A DNA stretch of 64,000 bases from a virus. Its lineage: Duplodnaviria; Caudoviricetes. Positions 51,931 to 63,369 of this stretch are shown piece after piece (the stretch's first letter is position 1; each line of letters begins with the position of its first letter). The notes under the pieces are model-generated. The model saw only the letters and a program-made list of their open reading frames with translations. It was not told the origin of the DNA and did no database searches. The DNA is taken from IMG/VR virus record IMGVR_UViG_3300011008_002712; one strand, written 5' to 3'. The position numbers were made by a program, and so were the translations under genes.

Positions 51931-53019
51931 TCACTTTTTCTTTGACGCTAATTGGCACATATATAAAACATCTATCGGAATCACTGATAAGATTGTTTTT
52001 GTCAATGTATAAGTATCACAATGGCTTAATGATCCAATAAAAGAATTCAATGTCTGAGTGAATCTGAGTAAAGTTTCTTCTTTATATAATAGTTTTTTAA
52101 CATGCGATTTCATTTTTCTTTTTATTCTAAGAGCAGAACTTTTTCTTAATTTCATATGATCGTGAAATGCAACATATCCACAAAAATCAACACCAACTCT
52201 AGTTTTTCTAATCGCTGTTTTTCTGTTGAATTCTAATTTTAAATTATTTTTTGCAAATTCTTTTAATTTATCTCTTATTTCGCGAAGATAGTTTTTATCA
52301 TTATGAACAATGCATATGTCATCCATGTATCTTACATAATATTTTGTTCTTAATTCGTGTTTTGCATATTGATCTAATTCATTTAAATATATATTTGCAA
52401 ACATTTGCGAAGTTAAATTGCCTATTGGAAGTCCTAATCCAGTTTCTCTTTCTCCAGTCAAGAAAATGTCATCTAAAGCGATACCAAGAGGCTCCTGACA
52501 GAATATAATATCTCCAAGAAGTTTTTGTGCTCTTTTATCTTTTATTGTATCGCATATTATCTGGTAAAGTATTTCATGTACAACTCTATAAAAATATTTA
52601 GATATATCCATTTTTAAGATATAGCTATCTTCTCCACATATTTTTATATATTCTTGTAATTTATCTATAGCTGCATGGGTTCCTCCACCAACTCTACATG
52701 CATAACTTGTTGGTATGAATCTTTTTTCAAAAATTGGATTGATTGTTGCAAAAACACTCCATTGAACAACTCTGTCTTTAAATGGTAATGACATAATTAA
52801 TCTTCGCTTTGGATCTGATATATAGAATTTATGATATGGAGACATGACATAAGTGTCATTGATTAATTCTTTTTGTATTTCTAATAAATTTTTTCTTGGA
52901 TTCATCATAAATTCTATTGCGTCTCTTCTATTTCGTTTTCCTTTCAATGCTTTTTTATAGGCATATACTAACGTATCCATGTCAGTAATTTGTTCAAATA
53001 TGTGATTATATCTTTTCAA
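51931..53019 (-). CDS. DGR-type reverse transcriptase
   Basis: PKRRLIMSLPFKDRVVQ, LKMDISKYF, GLPIGNLTSQ (DGR-type motif), YVRYMDD, GVDFCGY; start moved to TTG at 53019 after GGAG RBS. Confidence 0.9.
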   Translation of the reverse strand: MKRYNHIFEQITDMDTLVYAYKKALKGKRNRRDAIEFMMNPRKNLLEIQKELINDTYVMSPYHKFYISDPKRRLIMSLPFKDRVVQWSVFATINPIFEKRFIPTSYACRVGGGTHAAIDKLQEYIKICGEDSYILKMDISKYFYRVVHEILYQIICDTIKDKRAQKLLGDIIFCQEPLGIALDDIFLTGERETGLGLPIGNLTSQMFANIYLNELDQYAKHELRTKYYVRYMDDICIVHNDKNYLREIRDKLKEFAKNNLKLEFNRKTAIRKTRVGVDFCGYVAFHDHMKLRKSSALRIKRKMKSHVKKLLYKEETLLRFTQTLNSFIGSLSHCDTYTLTKTILSVIPIDVLYMCQLASKKK

Positions 53020-53078: not shown

Positions 53079-53927
53079 TTGAGTATATTACTTTGGCCAA
53101 ACTTAGAAAAACATAATATTAAAGAAACATTAGATAAAGTTGTACAATATCTTTATAACAATTCAAAAAATGATATTGACAAACCAATAATGCTAAAGCA
53201 ACATGCAAAATTCTTTTATTATGACAATATTGGAATAGATTTTGAATCAAATGAAGTTATTCCAATAGCTATATCTTTTGGAGGTGATGGTACATTCCTT
53301 GGAATGTGCAGAGAATTATTAAAAAACAAATATTTTCATACGCGAGTATGCGGAATAAATTTAGGAAATCTTGGTTTCTTAACTAACATTGGAACAAATA
53401 ATTTAGCTAATAGATTGAATGATCTTGTCAATAAACATTATAAATCAATTAAAAGAAATGTCTTGATAGGGAACATTGACGATGTGAATCAAATTGCAAT
53501 CAATGATATTTCTGTAACAAAAGGCTCAATGATTTCTCGAATGCTGAACCTATCTCTTTATATAGATAATAAGTATTTTATGAATTATAGAGCAGATGGA
53601 TTAATTATTTCTACAGCAACTGGTTCTACTGGATATTCATTGTCAGCTGGAGGAAGTATCGTGCATCCATCAGTTGAGGCATTATTGATTACTCCAATTT
53701 GCGCACATTCAATTAGTATGAAACCATTAATTATAAGTTTTCGTTCTTCTATTACTATTAAAATTGATGATTCTAAAGAAGCGTTAGCAACATTTGACGG
53801 ACAAAAAAGCTATAAACTAAATAACAAACAAGAAATACATATAAAAAGTGCACCATATAAGTTAAACACGATACAATTCCAAGATTTAGATTACTATGAC
53901 ATTATAAAGGAGAAATTGATAAAATGA
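53079..53927 (+). CDS. nadK: NAD+ kinase
   Basis: GGDGT, GINLGNLGFL, ND, DGLIISTATGSTGYSLSAGG. Confidence 0.92.
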   Translation: MSILLWPNLEKHNIKETLDKVVQYLYNNSKNDIDKPIMLKQHAKFFYYDNIGIDFESNEVIPIAISFGGDGTFLGMCRELLKNKYFHTRVCGINLGNLGFLTNIGTNNLANRLNDLVNKHYKSIKRNVLIGNIDDVNQIAINDISVTKGSMISRMLNLSLYIDNKYFMNYRADGLIISTATGSTGYSLSAGGSIVHPSVEALLITPICAHSISMKPLIISFRSSITIKIDDSKEALATFDGQKSYKLNNKQEIHIKSAPYKLNTIQFQDLDYYDIIKEKLIK

Positions 53928-54382
53928 TTTTAATTTTAAAAAACATTAAAAACATAATTAACATTAATTTTTTAAAAACTGATTCAATATCATTGGATGC
54001 AACGAAGATATTTGATAGTGAAGATCATTTTGTTGCTTGTATAGAAGAAGATATTGAAATAACTAAAAAATTTTATCGAGAACTAATTAAAAAATTATTA
54101 GAAAATAAAGAATTGGATACGATTTATATTAATGATTTTAATAAAACATTGTGCGCAAAATCATATTCAGATGATTATGCAATAAAATGCAAGTATAAAA
54201 ATGGGATAGAAGAAACGTATTTTACTTATGAATATCGTCGTGAAATGAAAAACAAACTAAAAAAAGAAGAAAATGAAGAAATAACAGAAGAAATTTTGGA
54301 AGCTTTAGAAGAAAAAGAAGACAAAAATTTAGAATACTGCGACAAAGTTAGATATAGACATTGTTTTAAAAATAAAAAATAA
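53924..54382 (+). CDS. Hypothetical protein coupled to nadK
   Basis: ATGA overlap with the nadK stop. Confidence 0.55.
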   Translation: MILILKNIKNIININFLKTDSISLDATKIFDSEDHFVACIEEDIEITKKFYRELIKKLLENKELDTIYINDFNKTLCAKSYSDDYAIKCKYKNGIEETYFTYEYRREMKNKLKKEENEEITEEILEALEEKEDKNLEYCDKVRYRHCFKNKK

Positions 54383-54544
54383 AGACACCGTTCGTGTGCA
54401 AAATATGCACCTACTAACTGTCTTTATCTGATACTACATTTTTTAACAGATACAATATGTCTGTTATGGATTTATGCCCCCTGTGCTCGAGCATCTTGAT
54501 ATACGGTCACGCATAGGCCGTATATACTCGCTTAACAAGTGAGC
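54379..54544 (-). ncRNA. DGR spacer RNA 3' of the TR (structured)
   Basis: Hairpins ATATACGG..CCGTATAT, TAACAGA..TCTGTTA and terminal ATAAAGACA-GTTAGTAGG...CGAACGG-TGTCTTTAT; GGCATAAATCCA can pair with TGGGGTTATGCC 5' of the TR. Confidence 0.65.
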
Positions 54545-54664
54545 TCAGGCGAGGCGGAAGCCGATGTTAGTGTTCGTGTTGGACGAATTGTTGTTCAGAT
54601 TCCAGTAGAAGAGGCCAGCTTTCGACCCATTGTTCCAATTGCCGCCGACGTTAGCGACAACGCA
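54545..54664 (-). repeat. DGR template repeat (TR) for a C-type-lectin-fold variable region
   Basis: Conceptual translation CVVANVGGNWNNGSKAGLFYWNLNNNSSNTNTNIGFRLA*; 11 AAY codons; GC-rich island; 1.5 kb from a DGR RT. Confidence 0.9.
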
Positions 54665-54979
54665 TTTGGCATAACCCCAATGTAATTTTCTTAGGCCTGT
54701 TTACTGTATTGAACATACACGTCCAACACGAACAAACCATCGAAATTTATTTTACAGAATTAATATAGAATATAAAGCATTTCTTATAACAATGAATTTA
54801 ATGGAGACAAAATGATGAAATGTTCTTTTCAGCATGTCAAAACGCTTTCATTTTATAGCAAACAAATGTCAGATGATCAATTTGATTATTTGTTGAAGTA
54901 TACTTAAAATATAATTCATTATAAAAATGAATTATCTAAAGAATTTTTAAAATTTTTTCTAAACTACATTATGTATACA

Positions 54980-56233
54980 TTATTTGGATTCATTAATTAT
55001 TAAATAACGCCAATTATTACATGAACATTTTTTCTTTAAAAATCTAAGAGGAATTTTTAATGTTTTATTTGGTAAATAAATATAGTTGTCATTAATGTCT
55101 TTTATGTATGCATAATCTCTTGAAAATCCAGATACCCATCCAATTTTTCCTTTACAAATTACTTTGTCATTGAGACAACAATTTTTTATTTGTTTTATAT
55201 TTTTGTTGTTTCGTTTTTGAGTGGTGTTTGAATTTTTTCTTCCTTTTCTTGGGATTGCTTCATGTAAAGAACGTTTCTTTTTTCTAAATTGTTTAATGAT
55301 GAAAAAATCATTTGAATTTTCTTTTATTCGTGCGATTCCAGAAATTATGATTGCATCATTATAATGAGTCTTAGGTAAATTCAATTTATTTCTTATAGAA
55401 GATGTAGTAGAACCATTGATAAAAATGGCGGTTGAGAAAAGCTTGTTTATTTTGAATTTTATGATGTTCATAAATGTAGGATCTTTGAATTGTTTGCACT
55501 CGTGTTTTTGCATTAAATTGAATAAGATTTTTCCCTTTTTGTGATTTTCCTTTGTATGACATTTATTACAAAGTGTTATTAAATTATCTGCGCGCTCACT
55601 GCCATTCTTGTTTTTATACATAATATGGTGAATATGTAGTTTTTTTGAATTTCCGCATATCTGACATTTGTGGTTATCCCTTGCTAAAACATAATCATAA
55701 ACATTGTCATATCCAAAACATTTTCCGTGTTTATAGTCTGTTGTTGGATCAATGATTTTATGGATATTGAATTTTGCGTTTTCAATGTGAATGATTGGAT
55801 TCGGTAGTAAACTAGAAAATTTGTTTATCCAAAATAAAATGTTGTTGAATCTAGATTGAAGGCTTGGCGTTAAGAGATTTTTTGATTTTCTGTTCAAAAA
55901 TTTTGCTCTACGATATCTAGTTTTTCTTATTCTTCTAGATCTTCTTAGTTGTTTTCTTTTTAAAAGCAATTGATGAACATCTTGGCGTAATATTATTTCA
56001 CCTTTTGCAATTACATTATTTGAAGATGTAATTGCTATTCCGATATGTTTTGTTCCCATGTCAATTCCAAGATGAATTTCTTGTTTAGCTTCTCCTGTTG
56101 CATATAGAAGTTGTATTGTGAATGGCATGTAATGAATAATCTTAGCTTTCTTTTGTTTTAAAAGAATTCTAGCTTTTCTTTGAGAACATGGCATTAGTGC
56201 TTGTCCTCTTTTATTTCTAACAAAAACTCTCAA
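54980..56233 (-). CDS. iscB: IscB RNA-guided nuclease (PLMP, RuvC, bridge helix, HNH)
   Basis: ALMPC, GIDMG (RuvC-I), RRSRRIRKTRYR, IHIE (RuvC-II), HIHH...NLITLCNKCH (HNH), THYNDA (RuvC-III); catalytic residues appear intact. Confidence 0.93.
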   Translation of the reverse strand: MRVFVRNKRGQALMPCSQRKARILLKQKKAKIIHYMPFTIQLLYATGEAKQEIHLGIDMGTKHIGIAITSSNNVIAKGEIILRQDVHQLLLKRKQLRRSRRIRKTRYRRAKFLNRKSKNLLTPSLQSRFNNILFWINKFSSLLPNPIIHIENAKFNIHKIIDPTTDYKHGKCFGYDNVYDYVLARDNHKCQICGNSKKLHIHHIMYKNKNGSERADNLITLCNKCHTKENHKKGKILFNLMQKHECKQFKDPTFMNIIKFKINKLFSTAIFINGSTTSSIRNKLNLPKTHYNDAIIISGIARIKENSNDFFIIKQFRKKKRSLHEAIPRKGRKNSNTTQKRNNKNIKQIKNCCLNDKVICKGKIGWVSGFSRDYAYIKDINDNYIYLPNKTLKIPLRFLKKKCSCNNWRYLIINESK

Positions 56234-56239
56234 GTTTTG

Positions 56240-56481
56240 TTCCTCCTATCTAATGATATGAGTTTGATTGCCCTTCGCTAATGTTGTAATCGCTTACTTA
56301 CAATGGTAAGCTGTCCTTGGGTTGACCATTTTTCATCTCTAAAAACTTTTACAGAGCCCAAACAGTGTCATAAACTAGAGCATCATTTATGAGTGTTATA
56401 ACGAAAACAACGTAGTCATTATGACTTAAGCTAATCAATGATATGAAAGAGATGCATTGATTTGCCGCCAACGTTAATTTT
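56240..56481 (-). ncRNA. omegaRNA of IscB (guide ~56481-56462, scaffold from 56461)
   Basis: ATCAATG..CATTGATTAGCTTAAG..GACTACGTT..TGATGCTCTAGT..CTCTGT..AACATTAGCGAAGG directly upstream of iscB, matching HEARO/omegaRNA landmarks. Confidence 0.8.
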
Positions 56482-56982: not shown

Positions 56983-57111
56983 TGTAGACATATAGCCAAT
57001 GAAAATAGATTAACCCAATCTCATTTCAAATGTTTATGCTGCGGATATGAAATGGATGCAGATATAAATTCTATTTTAAATATTAAAAAAGGAGGCTGTT
57101 CCCTCCTTTAA
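56983..57111 (+). pseudogene. Remnant of a TnpB C-terminus (Zn finger plus RuvC-III)
   Basis: Translates CRHIANENRLTQSHFKCLCCGYEMDADINSILNIKK; no start codon. Confidence 0.7.
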
Positions 57112-57276
57112 TCACAAAAATGTTTTGTAATTTCTTCTAAAATTTTATTTCCAGCATTTTGCATTGAAGAATTCCAACAATTTTTTAAATTATTCTTAAC
57201 AAAATTATCAAAATTTTTATTGATATTAGATTGTATTTAATTCAAAATCTTTGTTTGTTCTAAAATGTTTTTTCAT
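57109..57276 (-). pseudogene. Degraded copy of 62429-62653
   Basis: MKKHFRTNKDFELNTI* premature stop plus internal deletion relative to the paralog. Confidence 0.7.
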
Positions 57277-57277
57277 G

Positions 57278-57808
57278 TCAATAATTTATTTTGAAGTTTT
57301 CTGACGGTCTGAGTTTTATATATAACATGCCTTTTCTTCTTCCTTTATAAGTGTAATCTTCAAATGTATCAAATTTTTGTCGTTCTAATCCTTTTCCCCA
57401 TCCATTAGCATATTGTTCTTCAAGATAATCAGCTGTAGATTTTAATATTTCGTTTGTTGGGTTTTCGCTATACGTTACTTTCATAATAGCTGTTTCTTGA
57501 GTAAGCTCGAATTCGATATCTTTAATTGTTGGAACTTTTTCTTTAGCGGCATATAAAATAATTTCTTTATGCGATTTAAAATCACTTTCAGCAAGCTCTT
57601 TAGCTTCATCATAATATTCCCACCAAAATAGCGCTGGTACTTCTTGTGTGCTACCAGTATTTCTTAAATATTCTACTCGTATTTTCCATTCTGATTTGAA
57701 TTCTTTTACAGTATCATCACTAGCATGATGTTTTCTATATATAGAGTGTTTAGTTAATGGAATATTTTCAAATGATTTTTTCTTTAAATGTTTTCTTATA
57801 ATGTTCAT
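57278..57808 (-). CDS. Hypothetical protein, paralog of 62655-63224
   Basis: Identical first ~42 aa. Confidence 0.75.
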   Translation of the reverse strand: MNIIRKHLKKKSFENIPLTKHSIYRKHHASDDTVKEFKSEWKIRVEYLRNTGSTQEVPALFWWEYYDEAKELAESDFKSHKEIILYAAKEKVPTIKDIEFELTQETAIMKVTYSENPTNEILKSTADYLEEQYANGWGKGLERQKFDTFEDYTYKGRRKGMLYIKLRPSENFKINY

Positions 57809-57875
57809 TTACATAACCTCTTTTTGTTAGATTTCTATTTTCAATATATGAAATATGCGTAATTTTATTTTTGAT

Positions 57876-59577
57876 GGCGAGAAGACTCCCGCCTCTTAGC
57901 GAAGCGTAAGCGGGAGATGAATCGCCACACTCTTTGACTCAAAACCATACCAAATTCCATCCAAGAATGGAATATATGTGCTATAATATAGAGCAGCAAG
58001 TATTCCACAAGAGAAGGGAGTGAATCAGCCATGAATCAGCTACAGCAAGCCTTGCTGGAACAAAACCTGCTCGAAACTGTCAAGGAGGAATTCCAGTATG
58101 GATATGTCTACGAAATCTACCCTGATAAAGAACAACGTCAGTATATCCATAGGAATTGCGGCTGCAAAAGGCAGATTCACAATCTTTTTGTGGATGAGCT
58201 GTATCACTATCTCGAAAACATAAACTTTAAAAAAGGAGCTATCCCTGGCGAATTCATCAAAAATCTGTCTAAGGCTAAATTCTACAAGGAAAAATTCCCT
58301 TACATGAAGGAAGTTGATTCCCTGGCACTGTCTGCTGCCCGCCTGGATTTTGTCGCTTCGATACGGAAATATAATTCAGAATATGTACCTAAAGGCAATC
58401 CATACAAAAAGAAGGCTCTTAAGCAGGTGAAAACTATCGGCAAGGAGCTTACCTTTTGCGACCTGAAAGGAATGCCTAAATTCTCGGCAAAATATTTTTC
58501 TGAGCAGTCCTTCACTACGAATAACCAAAATGGCACTGTCATGCTTGAAGAATATTCCAGCGGAAACAAAAAATATATGGCTCTGACTATACCGAAGCTG
58601 AAGAATCCCATCAAGCTGCGGTATCATCGGGAAATCCCTGAAAAGGCGAAAATCACCAAGGTTGTCATACATCGCATCGGACAAGATAAATACACTGCTT
58701 CTTTGGCGGTGGTATTCACCAAAGAATATCTTGCCCTGAAGCATGATCAGAAATCACTGGAAAAATTCAAGAAGTTCCTACATGAACATCATGAGTATTG
58801 CCTTGGACTGGATTATTCTCAGCAGGAAGGTTGCGTACCAAGCACAAAAGACAAAGTCCTGCTGGAAAATATTCTGAATACATTTCAAAAGACATACCGA
58901 AAAAATGAGCAGAAACTGCAAGCACTTCAAAGGCAGCTTTCCAAAAAAATCAAGCAAAGCAACGCTTACCTAAAGTTGCGGAGCAAAATCAAGAGACTGC
59001 ACAAAAAGATTGCCAATATCCGAAAGAATGCCCTAAATGTGCTCTCATACAGTATGGCAAGACAGTTTGCCATGGTATCTGTTGAGGACATTGACCTTCG
59101 TGGAATGTCCCAGACGCTCAGGCTGGCAAAAAACCTTCTGGATAATGGCTTTGGCATGTTTCGGGAGATGCTTGCATATAAGCTTAAAGCCAACGGATAT
59201 GTCTTTGTTAAGATAGGCCGTTTCGAGAAATCCACACAGACCTGCCATGAATGCGGTCATATCAATACGTTTACCAAAAACATGAATATCAAGGAATACG
59301 ACTGCGGTGGCTGCGGCAGACATCTGAATCGCGACTACAACGCAGCTTTGAATATTCGTGATATGGGAATTCAAACTGTTTCGACTGACCTTTTTCAGGA
59401 GAAAAAAGCTAAATTCTCACTCGCTGCTCTGCGAGCAAAAAAGAGTAGGGCCGGGAACCTGTCCTAAAGTCCGGTAGGAGTGACCGCATACGCCTTTCAG
59501 CAGGTCTAGCATTTGCTGAACGGTAGCGGCACGATGACGACTGGAAACTCCTGCCTCTACAGGCAGGAGTAGTTCAC
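57876..59577 (+). mobile_element. TnpB-only IS200/IS605-family (IS1341-like) element
   Basis: TTGAT before the left end; left hairpin CTCCCGC..GCGGGAG; right hairpin ACTCCTGCCT..AGGCAGGAGT followed by TTCAC; higher GC than the phage background. Confidence 0.8.
58031..59467 (+). CDS. tnpB: TnpB
   Basis: YEIYPDKEQ, LGLDYS, VSVEDIDL, TCHECG..CGGCG, NRDYNAALNI. Confidence 0.9.
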   Translation: MNQLQQALLEQNLLETVKEEFQYGYVYEIYPDKEQRQYIHRNCGCKRQIHNLFVDELYHYLENINFKKGAIPGEFIKNLSKAKFYKEKFPYMKEVDSLALSAARLDFVASIRKYNSEYVPKGNPYKKKALKQVKTIGKELTFCDLKGMPKFSAKYFSEQSFTTNNQNGTVMLEEYSSGNKKYMALTIPKLKNPIKLRYHREIPEKAKITKVVIHRIGQDKYTASLAVVFTKEYLALKHDQKSLEKFKKFLHEHHEYCLGLDYSQQEGCVPSTKDKVLLENILNTFQKTYRKNEQKLQALQRQLSKKIKQSNAYLKLRSKIKRLHKKIANIRKNALNVLSYSMARQFAMVSVEDIDLRGMSQTLRLAKNLLDNGFGMFREMLAYKLKANGYVFVKIGRFEKSTQTCHECGHINTFTKNMNIKEYDCGGCGRHLNRDYNAALNIRDMGIQTVSTDLFQEKKAKFSLAALRAKKSRAGNLS

Positions 59578-60861: not shown

Positions 60862-62432
60862 CGTCCCCCCCGCCAAGAAGTCTCCCGCCTTTTAGGCGGT
60901 GAGATGAATTGGCGAATTTTTATAAAATAAATGATATACTTTTTTAGTAAAGGAGGTGAATAAGGAATGGCAGTAAAGGTTATAAAAACTAACTTCACGG
61001 CGATACCTGAAGATATAGAACGACTTTTTGCTTGTAACAGAATATCCGGGATGATTTGGAATAAAGTTTTGCAGATAGCCAAAGATTATAGCCTTACTCA
61101 CGATGGCAAATGGGCGGGTATAACTTATCTTCAATCAGCTACAAAAAATATTTATCCTCTACATTCTCAGAGTGTTCAGGCGGTTGTTCATAAATATCTT
61201 TTTGCTAGAGACTCTGCCTACCAAGCCAGACTCAAAGGCTTAAAAAATAAATATCCTTGGTGTTCAAAGAAAAATTTTAACACCAAATGGGTTGACCAAG
61301 CTTTTGCTTTTGATTTCAAAGCAAGAACTTTGACTCTTTCTTTGGGTATCTGGAATCATAAAAAACAGAATCCAATCTTGCTTTCTCTTCCATTAGATGT
61401 CATTACAAAACTAAAAAATATCTCCTCCAAATGTAAAAACGCTATCTCTGAAATAGAATTAATATACGACAATGGCCTTTTTCTTTGTATCACCTATGAT
61501 GATGGGGAAAAAGCTCCTAAAAGCATCGATTCAATCGAAATAGCTGGTGTGGATCTAGGAGAAATCCATACTATAGCAGCCTGTGCTACTAATGGTAAAT
61601 CTATCATCATCACAGGTAGAAAGCTACGTTCCATTCATAGGCTCCGTAATAAATTGATCTCTAAAATCCAAAAAGCACAAGCTAAATGTAAAAAAGGTTC
61701 TCGCTGTTGGAAAAAGTTACAACGTAAAAAGCGGTTTATCCTTTCGAAATCAAAGCACCAAGTAGCATACAAGACACATGAAATAACAAAGAATTTCGTG
61801 GACTGGTGTGTAGAGAATAAAATAACTAAAGTATACTGTGGAGATCCAGAGGGAGTGCAACGCAATACCTCCGGCAGGAAGAAAAAGAACCGCACTACAG
61901 CAAAGAGTAGAAAGAAAATCCGCAAGCGGAAGGTATCTCAGAGACTTTCGAACTGGAATTTTGGGAAGGTAAAAGACTATCTGAGATATAAGCTTCAAAA
62001 CAAAGGGATTACTTTTGAGGAGATAAATGAAGCATATACCTCCCAGACCTGTCCAGTATGCGGTAGGCGGCATAAAACCAGCAGTAGGAATTATGTATGC
62101 ACATGTGGATATAAAGCCCATAGGGATGTACATGGATCGCATAATATCTTATCCCTTGGATTAACAGGGCGTTTTGAAAAAATCTGTGATTTTGAGACAC
62201 AGAAGCCCAAGTATCTACGGCTGACTGCGTGAATAGTCAGAGTTGTATGTAGAAGCTCACGAACCGAGCCACGGTAGGTAATCCCTGCTGCGTAGCCTGT
62301 TTTAGATAACTGAAGAATGAGTACGACAACCTTCGGTTCCGTAGGAAAAGGTCAACACCTTTTCCCTCCGTTCATTCGACATCTATCGTTAAAAACAGGA
62401 AGCCCCCACTTTTTTAAGTGGGGGAGGTTCAC
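60862..62432 (+). mobile_element. TnpB-only IS200/IS605-family element; boundaries defined by the empty paralogous site
   Basis: TTTAA|CGTCCCC...CCCCCACTT..AAGTGGGGGAGGTTCAC|TCATAAAAATG versus empty TTTAA|TCACAAAAATG at 57107-57122. Confidence 0.9.
60967..62232 (+). CDS. tnpB: TnpB
   Basis: LHSQSVQ, GVDLGEIH, EINEAYTSQTCPVCG..CTCG, HRDVHGSHNI. Confidence 0.9.
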   Translation: MAVKVIKTNFTAIPEDIERLFACNRISGMIWNKVLQIAKDYSLTHDGKWAGITYLQSATKNIYPLHSQSVQAVVHKYLFARDSAYQARLKGLKNKYPWCSKKNFNTKWVDQAFAFDFKARTLTLSLGIWNHKKQNPILLSLPLDVITKLKNISSKCKNAISEIELIYDNGLFLCITYDDGEKAPKSIDSIEIAGVDLGEIHTIAACATNGKSIIITGRKLRSIHRLRNKLISKIQKAQAKCKKGSRCWKKLQRKKRFILSKSKHQVAYKTHEITKNFVDWCVENKITKVYCGDPEGVQRNTSGRKKKNRTTAKSRKKIRKRKVSQRLSNWNFGKVKDYLRYKLQNKGITFEEINEAYTSQTCPVCGRRHKTSSRNYVCTCGYKAHRDVHGSHNILSLGLTGRFEKICDFETQKPKYLRLTA

Positions 62433-62653
62433 TCATAAAAATGTTTTGTAATTTCTTCTAAAATTTTATTTCCAGCATCTTGCATTGAAGAATTCCAACA
62501 ATTTTTTAGATTATTTCTGACAAAATTATTAAAATCTTTATCAGCATTAATTTCTTCACTGACATTGATTAAAGAGAATGCTAAATTTTTTAGCATTTCA
62601 TATTGAGTTTTATTCAACTCAAAATCTTTGTTCGCTCTAAGATGTTTTTTCAT
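62429..62653 (-). CDS. Small hypothetical protein whose stop codon is supplied by the IS end
   Basis: 74 aa; TGA at 62431-62429 lies inside the TTCAC end. Confidence 0.65.
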   Translation of the reverse strand: MKKHLRANKDFELNKTQYEMLKNLAFSLINVSEEINADKDFNNFVRNNLKNCWNSSMQDAGNKILEEITKHFYE

Positions 62654-62654
62654 G

Positions 62655-63224
62655 TCAATAATCCATTTTGAAGTCTCTAGATGACCAGAGTTTTACATAT
62701 AACCTGCCAGTGCCAGTCTCATAATCTTCAATATACTCCCCAGTTTCTTCATCTTCATATCCAACATCAATTTGTTCTTCGAATGTATCGAATTCTTGCT
62801 GTTCTAATCCTTCTCCCCATCCATCAGCATATTGTCCTTCAAGATAATCAGCTGTAGATTTTAATATTTTGTCTGTTGGTTTTTCACTATATGTTACTTT
62901 CATAATAGCTGTTTCTGGAGTAAGTCTGAATTCCATGTCTTTAATTGTTGGAATTTCTTCTTTAGCTACATCTAAAATAATTTCTTTAGATGATTCGAAA
63001 CTACTTTCAGCACATTTTTTAGCTTCATCATAAAATTCTTCCCAAAATTTTGCCGATTCTTCTTCCATACCGCCAGCATCTGGATATTCTACCCATACTT
63101 TCCATTCTGATTTGAATTCTTTTACAGTATCATCACTAGCATGGTGTTTTCTATATATAGAATGTTTGGTTAATGGAATATTTTCAAATGATTTTTTCTT
63201 TAAATGTTTTCTTATAATATTCAT
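62655..63224 (-). CDS. Acidic hypothetical protein, paralog of 57278-57808
   Basis: YLEGQYADGWGEGLEQ motif; GAGG RBS. Confidence 0.75.
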   Translation of the reverse strand: MNIIRKHLKKKSFENIPLTKHSIYRKHHASDDTVKEFKSEWKVWVEYPDAGGMEEESAKFWEEFYDEAKKCAESSFESSKEIILDVAKEEIPTIKDMEFRLTPETAIMKVTYSEKPTDKILKSTADYLEGQYADGWGEGLEQQEFDTFEEQIDVGYEDEETGEYIEDYETGTGRLYVKLWSSRDFKMDY

Positions 63225-63369
63225 TTACATAACCTCTTTTTGTTAGTTTTCTATTTTCAATATATAAAATATGTGCAATTTTATTTTTGTAAGTAGAAAT
63301 TGTTACATTATAAAAAAATTTAATTTTTATATAATGTTTTAAATGGAAAATAAGAAAGGTGAGAATCAT

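Follow-up and report, generated by a model that had tools for sequence, protein, structure and literature searches.

An apparent inverted partial copy of the template repeat in the leader of an IscB-associated jumbo-phage DGR

The window analysed here, a stretch of 64,000 nucleotides that forms the start, in reversed orientation, of a 416-kb virus record, has a GC content of 29.7% and carries the parts of a DGR together with an IscB system. On the minus strand their order is the IscB guide position, a HEARO omega-RNA, IscB itself, a leader, the template repeat (TR), the spacer (Sp), two genes on the opposite strand and the reverse transcriptase (RT). The guide position comprises 15 nt (56462..56476, TAACGTTGGCGGCAA) and matches TR positions 54653-54639 at 14 of 15 letters. 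The omega-RNA scaffold of IscB (56263..56461) was recognized by an RNA family match of 86 bits, and domain matches placed IscB, with its RRXRR/RuvC and HNH regions, at 54980..56233, directly upstream of the leader. TR proper occupies 54546..54662, its 5' edge being estimated from relatives and its 3' edge set by the end of VR homology; it is a GC-rich stretch reading ...GGNWNNGSKAGLFYWNLNNNSSNTNTNIGFRLA followed by a stop, with a stop codon upstream and no start codon. Alignment to the homologous region of canonical relatives assigned 54379..54545 to Sp; as the RT gene is not its direct neighbour, Sp terminates in a hairpin and a T-run. The NAD kinase gene (nadK) and a 152-aa ORF (53079..54382, plus strand; ORF and domain reading) lie between Sp and the gene for the 362-aa RT (51931..53019, minus strand), the latter identified by a profile match and by the loci of its relatives.

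Some further features surround this array. Between IscB and the leader, a small ORF with a GGAG ribosome-binding site (54813-54908, plus strand) encodes 31 aa; its counterpart in strains L045-L047, where the stop codon is absent, has 63 aa, and it is unlikely to be a conserved gene. In the interval between avd and TR, on the upstream side of the IscB locus, a block of about 770 nt is present twice (57107-57873 and 62428-63289, 80-95% identity), and the same interval contains a TnpB element (58031-59467, plus strand) with a GC content of about 43% versus 30%. Comparison of the locus with phage GenBank entries returned short TR-like matches only, and Sp or TR sequences from the clade, used as exact patterns against viral contigs and JGI metagenome contigs, gave nothing useful.

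Judging by its sequence, the DGR of the window is genuine. The RT matched RVT_1 at 3.3e-21 in a profile search, and its nearest relatives, at 48-50% identity, all reside in canonical VR-avd-TR-Sp-RT loci with adenine-only repeat mismatches. Both TR and Sp of the window align to these relatives; ACATTGGG, immediately 5' of TR, and TAAAGACAGTTAGTA, within Sp, are among the conserved stretches. Within the 416-kb record, no VR was found by adenine-tolerant regular expressions, sensitive blastn or tblastn with the TR peptide, and the Avd family PF05635 was absent. A second assembly of the same phage (L049), which is 100% identical across the shared 11.6 kb and extends 5.8 kb further, supplied a VR end and a candidate Avd. 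Its positions 1-73 are the 3' end of a VR with 11 differences from TR, all at TR adenines; the VR target gene is cut by the contig end. A 306-aa protein is encoded at positions 717-1637; its C-terminal part matches bAvd at E 3.6e-6 and 27.8 bits, short of the 40-bit cut-off, and its tail, ELGKMLGGWIK, resembles the Avd tail EIGKMLGGWIK of relatives. Thus, the record lacks a VR because it begins 5.8 kb too late, and it wrongly resembles a DGR without target or Avd. In this phage avd is located about 13 kb from TR, and avd, VR, TR and RT are dispersed over some 17 kb; the stretch from avd to TR includes two TnpB elements, IscB and other genes. In canonical relatives avd lies directly 5' of the leader position.

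TR itself is far more conserved than neutral sites. Window positions 54546-54662 are 93.7% identical to L042:7659-7776 of a sister lineage, with six synonymous and no non-synonymous codon changes in TR proper, against 30% identity (chance level) at four-fold degenerate sites of the two RT genes. The Avd-type hairpin in Sp beside TR differs in sequence between the same two loci and has the same shape.

The first-pass annotation had drawn attention to 15 nucleotides of the leader that are antisense to the 3' half of TR, and direct reading bore this out: plus 54720-54734 (CGTCCAACACGAACA) is the exact reverse complement of plus 54571-54585 (TGTTCGTGTTGGACG), so that the minus strand of the leader core (54720..54734) reads TGTTCGTGTTGGACG. 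The proposed extension by 5 bp was equally sound, as beyond a 3x4 internal loop CATCG (54738-54742) is complementary to CGATG (54562-54566); on the minus strand 54738..54742 reads CGATG (direct reading and RNAduplex) and marks the distal end of the element. Counting loops of 10 nt or more, the longest exact inverted repeat of region 54385-54800 measures 15 nt; in 200 dinucleotide-preserving shuffles the corresponding length was most often 8 nt and never exceeded 12 nt.

The complementarity reaches well beyond these 15 nucleotides and 5 bp. With RNAduplex, 51 nt of leader (minus 54744-54694) and 56 nt of TR (minus 54615-54560) were predicted to form 41 bp at -50.6 kcal/mol, a z of -7.9 relative to shuffled leaders; the TR arm of this pairing (54560..54615, minus strand, by RNAduplex and folding) includes both 54571-54585 and the minus-strand CATCG of 54562-54566. 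Alignment of the reverse-complemented leader with sense-strand TR, spanning GGCC to CATCG, gave 45 identical columns out of 57. Outside the 15-mer the local alignment still scored 30, the shuffle maximum being 22 (0/1000). Since the flanks are significantly similar even without the 15-mer, the leader element (54694..54744, minus strand; duplex and alignment), antisense to TR 'GCC...CATCGGC', is best regarded as an inverted partial copy of the second half of TR, and the 15-mer would be the best-kept stretch of this duplicate of about 51 nt, which runs from GGCC to CATCGGC. A perfect run of 15 somewhere in a copy of 71-79% identity has a probability of 8-27%; hence, the perfection of the core alone does not speak for selection. 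In VR the 15-mer reads CGTCCTACACGTACA, so that the leader matches TR and not VR. Leader and TR were identical across independent assemblies, and contigs from four DNA runs were identical without variants, which excludes an assembly artefact.

Several origins of this sequence were considered and set aside. A MAFFT alignment had suggested that the leader is what remains of the 3' end of avd; homology to antisense TR is what the statistics support instead. An integrated, adenine-mutagenised cDNA would not account for six core adenine positions that are unchanged, nor for the indels and non-adenine differences elsewhere, and the distal boundary of the copy lies about 10 nt from the presumed cDNA start, not at it. 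Neither a single ancestral full inverted TR nor a simple insertion of IscB into a TR fits as the source of both guide and leader, given the order and orientation of the fragments.

The leader occupies the place where avd usually ends, as the first-pass annotation had noticed; the position agrees with that of the avd end in canonical relatives. The further suggestion that it replaces an avd-derived 5' RNA element does not hold. In the canonical relatives, the short spacer between the avd stop codon and TR provides an upstream strand that pairs with Sp, and this upstream:Sp duplex was present at homologous positions in 13/13 sequences, including the window, with many compensatory differences (for example, GGGAAAUAAUC:GGUUAUUUUCC in L008 and GGGGAAUGGCC:GGCCAUUCUCC in L001). 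In the window the covarying strands are the cPRT Stop-like UGGGG.UUAUGCC at 54668..54679 and GGCAUAA.AUCCA at 54467..54478, both on the minus strand. As the window retains this duplex, the leader is not its replacement.

The architecture invites comparison with BPP-1, where the last 20 nt of avd pair with Sp (cPRT Stop) and the 3' end of TR also pairs with Sp (template:primer), TR being looped out between the two duplexes (Handa et al., bioRxiv 10.1101/2023.10.23.563531). The present DGR resembles BPP-1 in that the segment just 5' of TR pairs with Sp (UGGGG.UUAUGCC:GGCAUAA.AUCCA), in the homology of Sp, in the Avd-type hairpin after TR and in the adenine mutagenesis between TR and VR. By analogy, the primer strand here would be situated just 5' of the Sp stop strand and pair with the last bases of TR, and cDNA synthesis would start about 10 nt 3' of the leader fold-back. 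Unlike BPP-1, whose upstream RNA pairs with Sp and not with the template, our locus has an extra 51-nt segment, antisense to the template, further upstream, and its avd, VR, TR and RT are not clustered. Pairing of the leader type with the template was not found in the BPP-1 paper (bioRxiv 10.1101/2023.10.23.563531). Among our 17 canonical relatives, 15 showed no leader:TR complementarity. The two others, the near-identical L007 and L010, gave doubtful z values of -2.3 and -3.9; these scores come from G-U pairs and a GGCGAA:TTCGCC match of 6 bp and do not represent an inverted copy.

A search of 5.8 billion proteins yielded only three lineages with RT above 50% identity. The first is the window group (L045-L049), in which the RT is from more than 90% identical to fully identical (the window RT cluster), the locus DNA is 97-100% identical, both leader and TR arms are the same, the fold-back is predicted (for the window) and nadK stands between Sp and RT. 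The second (L040 and L041; RT 83%) has the same inverted copy with the same boundaries in a degraded form, a predicted fold-back, an inserted nadK, and IscB with its omega-RNA inverted relative to TR. The third (L042 and L043; RT 80%) has lost about 27 nt of the element, shows no fold-back, and carries IscB, a 50-nt leader, TR, Sp and RT contiguously. The leader is found between IscB and TR in all three. We also observed that nadK, with or without the small ORF, lies on the opposite strand between Sp and RT in the window and L040 lineages, by RT also in L041 and L044, and that L042 and L043, with their contiguous TR, Sp and RT, lack it at this place.

The boundaries of the inverted copy, GGCC and CATCG/CATG, are common to the window and L040, which points to a single ancestral event. 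Within them, the L040 leader reads TTCG-CG-TGTT-A-GACGAA against TTCGTCGAACACGAA of its own TR. Changes have accumulated on both arms: the L040 TR shows AAT to GCT, TCC to TCG and ACT to CAT, at which the L040 leader keeps the ancestral, window-like letters, and the window TR shows CTG to CTC, at which the leaders of both window and L040 keep G. In L042 and L043 the proximal part of about 27 nt is missing and only GCC(A)CGAT...TGTTCATGT is kept, the antisense remnant in L042 starting 9 nt past the IscB stop codon. Despite the half-lost element, RT is intact in these genomes and TR conserved as described above.

Aligned three ways, the leader:TR helix contained no compensatory substitution, a comparison of three lineages and so of low power to see covariation or to exclude weak selection; 77% of cells were paired, and covariation was no better than in shuffles (235/500). 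In the 15-bp core seven pairs were invariant and eight were broken in some lineage, none of them compensated. Leader identity between window and L040 was about 59%, equal to that of four-fold degenerate sites in RT (48/82), which is what neutral-level drift would produce; the core block was the best-conserved part, with 13/15 identities and one insertion. Four-fold sites between the window and L042 are saturated at 30%, and the retention in L042 of TGTTCATGT and GCC(A)CGAT could reflect weak constraint. The idea of a conserved switch is not borne out by this comparison, as one sister lineage breaks the helix core and the other has lost half of it, in neither case with compensation. The covariation of leader and TR that the first-pass annotation had proposed as a check was thus not seen, and not every member with an intact system has kept the stem.

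The IscB guide had been described as derived from TR, which proved correct, and true not only of the window but of all three lineages, whose guides come from three different parts of TR. The window guide TAACGTTGGCGGCAA matches TR at 14/15; in sister strains the match is 15/15. In L042 the guide TCTACTGGAAC (L042:6048-6065) has an exact TR match of 11/11, and in L040 (6012-6027, minus strand) AATGCTGGC, a 9-nt exact match, is joined to GGCGGTAA, which matches at 7/8. After the guide match TR continues with TTGGAA in the window and TTGAAC in L042. The RuvC and HNH motifs of the window IscB look intact. A synonymous C/T polymorphism at TR position 54647 (GTC/GTT) determines whether the guide matches at 14/15, as in the window, or at 15/15, as in the 97% identical L045-L047; the change could represent escape from self-targeting, or drift. 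In L040 the entire guide-omegaRNA-IscB unit (L040:4582-6027) is inverted relative to TR in comparison with the window and L042, and the omega-RNA and the TR RNA would there be transcribed divergently from an AT-rich spacer of about 115 nt. Further IscB copies in the genome, sought to define the ends of the element, were not found; relatives in IMG/VR gave HNH-level matches only, and a full-text literature search returned no paper on a link between IscB and DGRs beyond a general review.

Folding of the 361-nt RNA from 54745 to 54385 placed the fold-back in both the minimum free energy (MFE) and the centroid structure (-113.3 kcal/mol, z = -4.3). The same was predicted for L040 and not for L042, and the fold-back probably forms in the RNAs of the window and L040. 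The first-pass expectation that the leader of a minus-strand transcript would fold onto the 3' half of TR, near where cDNA synthesis presumably enters, is therefore what both predicted structures contain. A sigma-70-like site at 54776-54749 would start transcription at about 54742, the first base of the element; it is weak, with 6 sites found against 4.3 expected. No terminator was found between IscB and TR, the promoters are consensus matches only, and no RNA sequencing run was found to contain the locus. The rigid 41-bp helix would have its ends tied by linkers of about 10 nt and 14 nt to two adjacent duplexes, a geometry that looks strained. If it forms, the fold-back would more likely be an alternative, non-productive conformer than part of the active RNP.

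Taken together, we favour the view, with a probability of roughly 0.55, that the leader element is a decaying rearrangement scar at the place where avd parted from TR, dispensable, and neither a required switch nor a substitute for an avd element. As the common boundaries show, one copying event took place in the ancestor from which these IscB-associated jumbo-phage DGRs, a small clade, descend, and the copy may have arisen at the very breakpoint that separated avd from TR, through templated inverted copying during the rearrangement. At rearrangement or repair junctions, templated inverted insertions place an inverted copy of a short neighbouring sequence precisely at the breakpoint. The leader resembles them in that its breakpoint would coincide with the former avd/TR junction and one of its boundaries is the palindromic GGCC; unlike those cases, the copying here is read from sequence alone. 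Any transcript entering TR from upstream would carry the element and with it the predicted 41-bp fold-back, which would leave the template's 3' half base-paired to within about 10 nt of the presumed cDNA start. The helix would then compete with the geometry of the active RNP, force the RT to displace a strand and bury the 5' end of the RNA, the likely effect being a mild damping of cDNA synthesis, some stabilisation of the RNA, or both. After the copying, the element has drifted at the neutral rate without compensation, and half of it was deleted in a sister lineage. It is this drift, the missing compensation and the half deletion beside an intact TR and RT that argue for a dispensable scar. 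Against such a scar speaks the dominance of the fold-back in the predicted ensembles of the window and L040, owing to which the element cannot be structurally silent if it is transcribed.

That same dominance leads to a tentative and somewhat doubtful alternative, a functional cis-antisense element. The helix would have been selected as an OFF-state or attenuator, as a stabiliser of the 5' end of a stand-alone TR-Sp RNA, or as an RNase III site, and the RT-Avd complex or a helicase would have to open it before the template is read. Beyond the MFE and centroid folds of the window and L040, this reading draws on the end of the helix lying about 10 nt from the presumed cDNA start, on the weak sigma-70-like site that would begin the RNA with the element's first base, on the core as the best-conserved block of the leader, and on the survival of part of the core in L042 in the face of saturated neutral divergence. 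Moreover, the helix is kept where TR-Sp is uncoupled from the RT gene and lost where TR, Sp and RT are contiguous; its retention in the two lineages in which nadK separates a stand-alone TR-Sp unit from RT would fit a role in RNA stability. Set against these points are the several uncompensated substitutions on both arms, a divergence at the neutral level, the deletion of half of the element in L042 and L043, its absence from 15 of the 17 canonical relatives (L007 and L010 being doubtful) and the appreciable chance of a perfect 15-mer in a copy of this identity. Gating of the RT by the leader is conceivable, and the suggestion that the structure shields some adenines found no support.

Known RNAs offer partial parallels for a cis-antisense role. 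Retron msr-msd RNAs have an essential, conserved a1/a2 stem, which is formed outside the template and serves to position the priming G. Our predicted fold-back is similar in that a 5'-terminal RNA segment pairs close to the template's 3' end, beside the start of reverse transcription; it differs in covering the template itself, in having its priming elements in Sp, as other DGRs do, and in not being conserved. Likewise, 5'-terminal stem-loops stabilise bacterial RNAs, and cis-antisense attenuators sequester a functional region by means of an upstream complement. Here, too, the 5' end would be held in a long helix and a functional region sequestered, but there is no sign of selection for pairing and no anti-antisense partner was identified.

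Unlikely in our judgement is a DNA-level element tied to IscB, in which leader and TR-derived guide would be parts of one IscB-DGR apparatus. The leader would then be, for instance, a remnant or site of the repair of IscB cuts, a recombination site, or a by-product of installing TR-derived guides. The position of the leader between IscB and TR, the derivation of guides from different TR parts, both in 3/3 lineages, and the start of the L042 remnant so close to the IscB stop codon are consistent with it. Nevertheless, the window and L040 have the same leader boundaries although IscB is inverted between them, so that the copy must be older than, or independent of, the present IscB arrangement. 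None of the three guide targets has an intact complement in the leader, the order and orientation of the fragments do not follow from a single inverted TR copy, and no mechanism of this kind is known. A bolder version, to which we give similarly little credence, would join the TR fragment and the guides in one unit, with an RNA-guided nuclease recruited to the DGR, where IscB with its template-derived guides would act on TR/VR DNA or cDNA, and a fold-back that times access of the RT to the template; IscB might then, for example, open the target for cDNA integration or police copies of the template. Finally, chance complementarity or an assembly artefact, for which nothing but the AT-rich surroundings speaks, can be dismissed in the light of a 15-nt repeat versus a shuffle maximum of 12, flanks that are significant by themselves, the same sequence in independent assemblies and runs, and a homologous copy in the diverged lineage L040.

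In conclusion, the comparative data favour a decaying scar, and a cis-antisense switch should not be claimed further unless experiments bear it out. Taken alone, the leader element is a curiosity, in which half of a template could be locked in a 41-bp helix by an inverted copy of itself placed upstream; if the helix does damp reverse transcription, it would provide a simple natural handle on DGR activity. More remarkable than the leader is that IscB has been kept beside TR in three lineages of a small phage clade.
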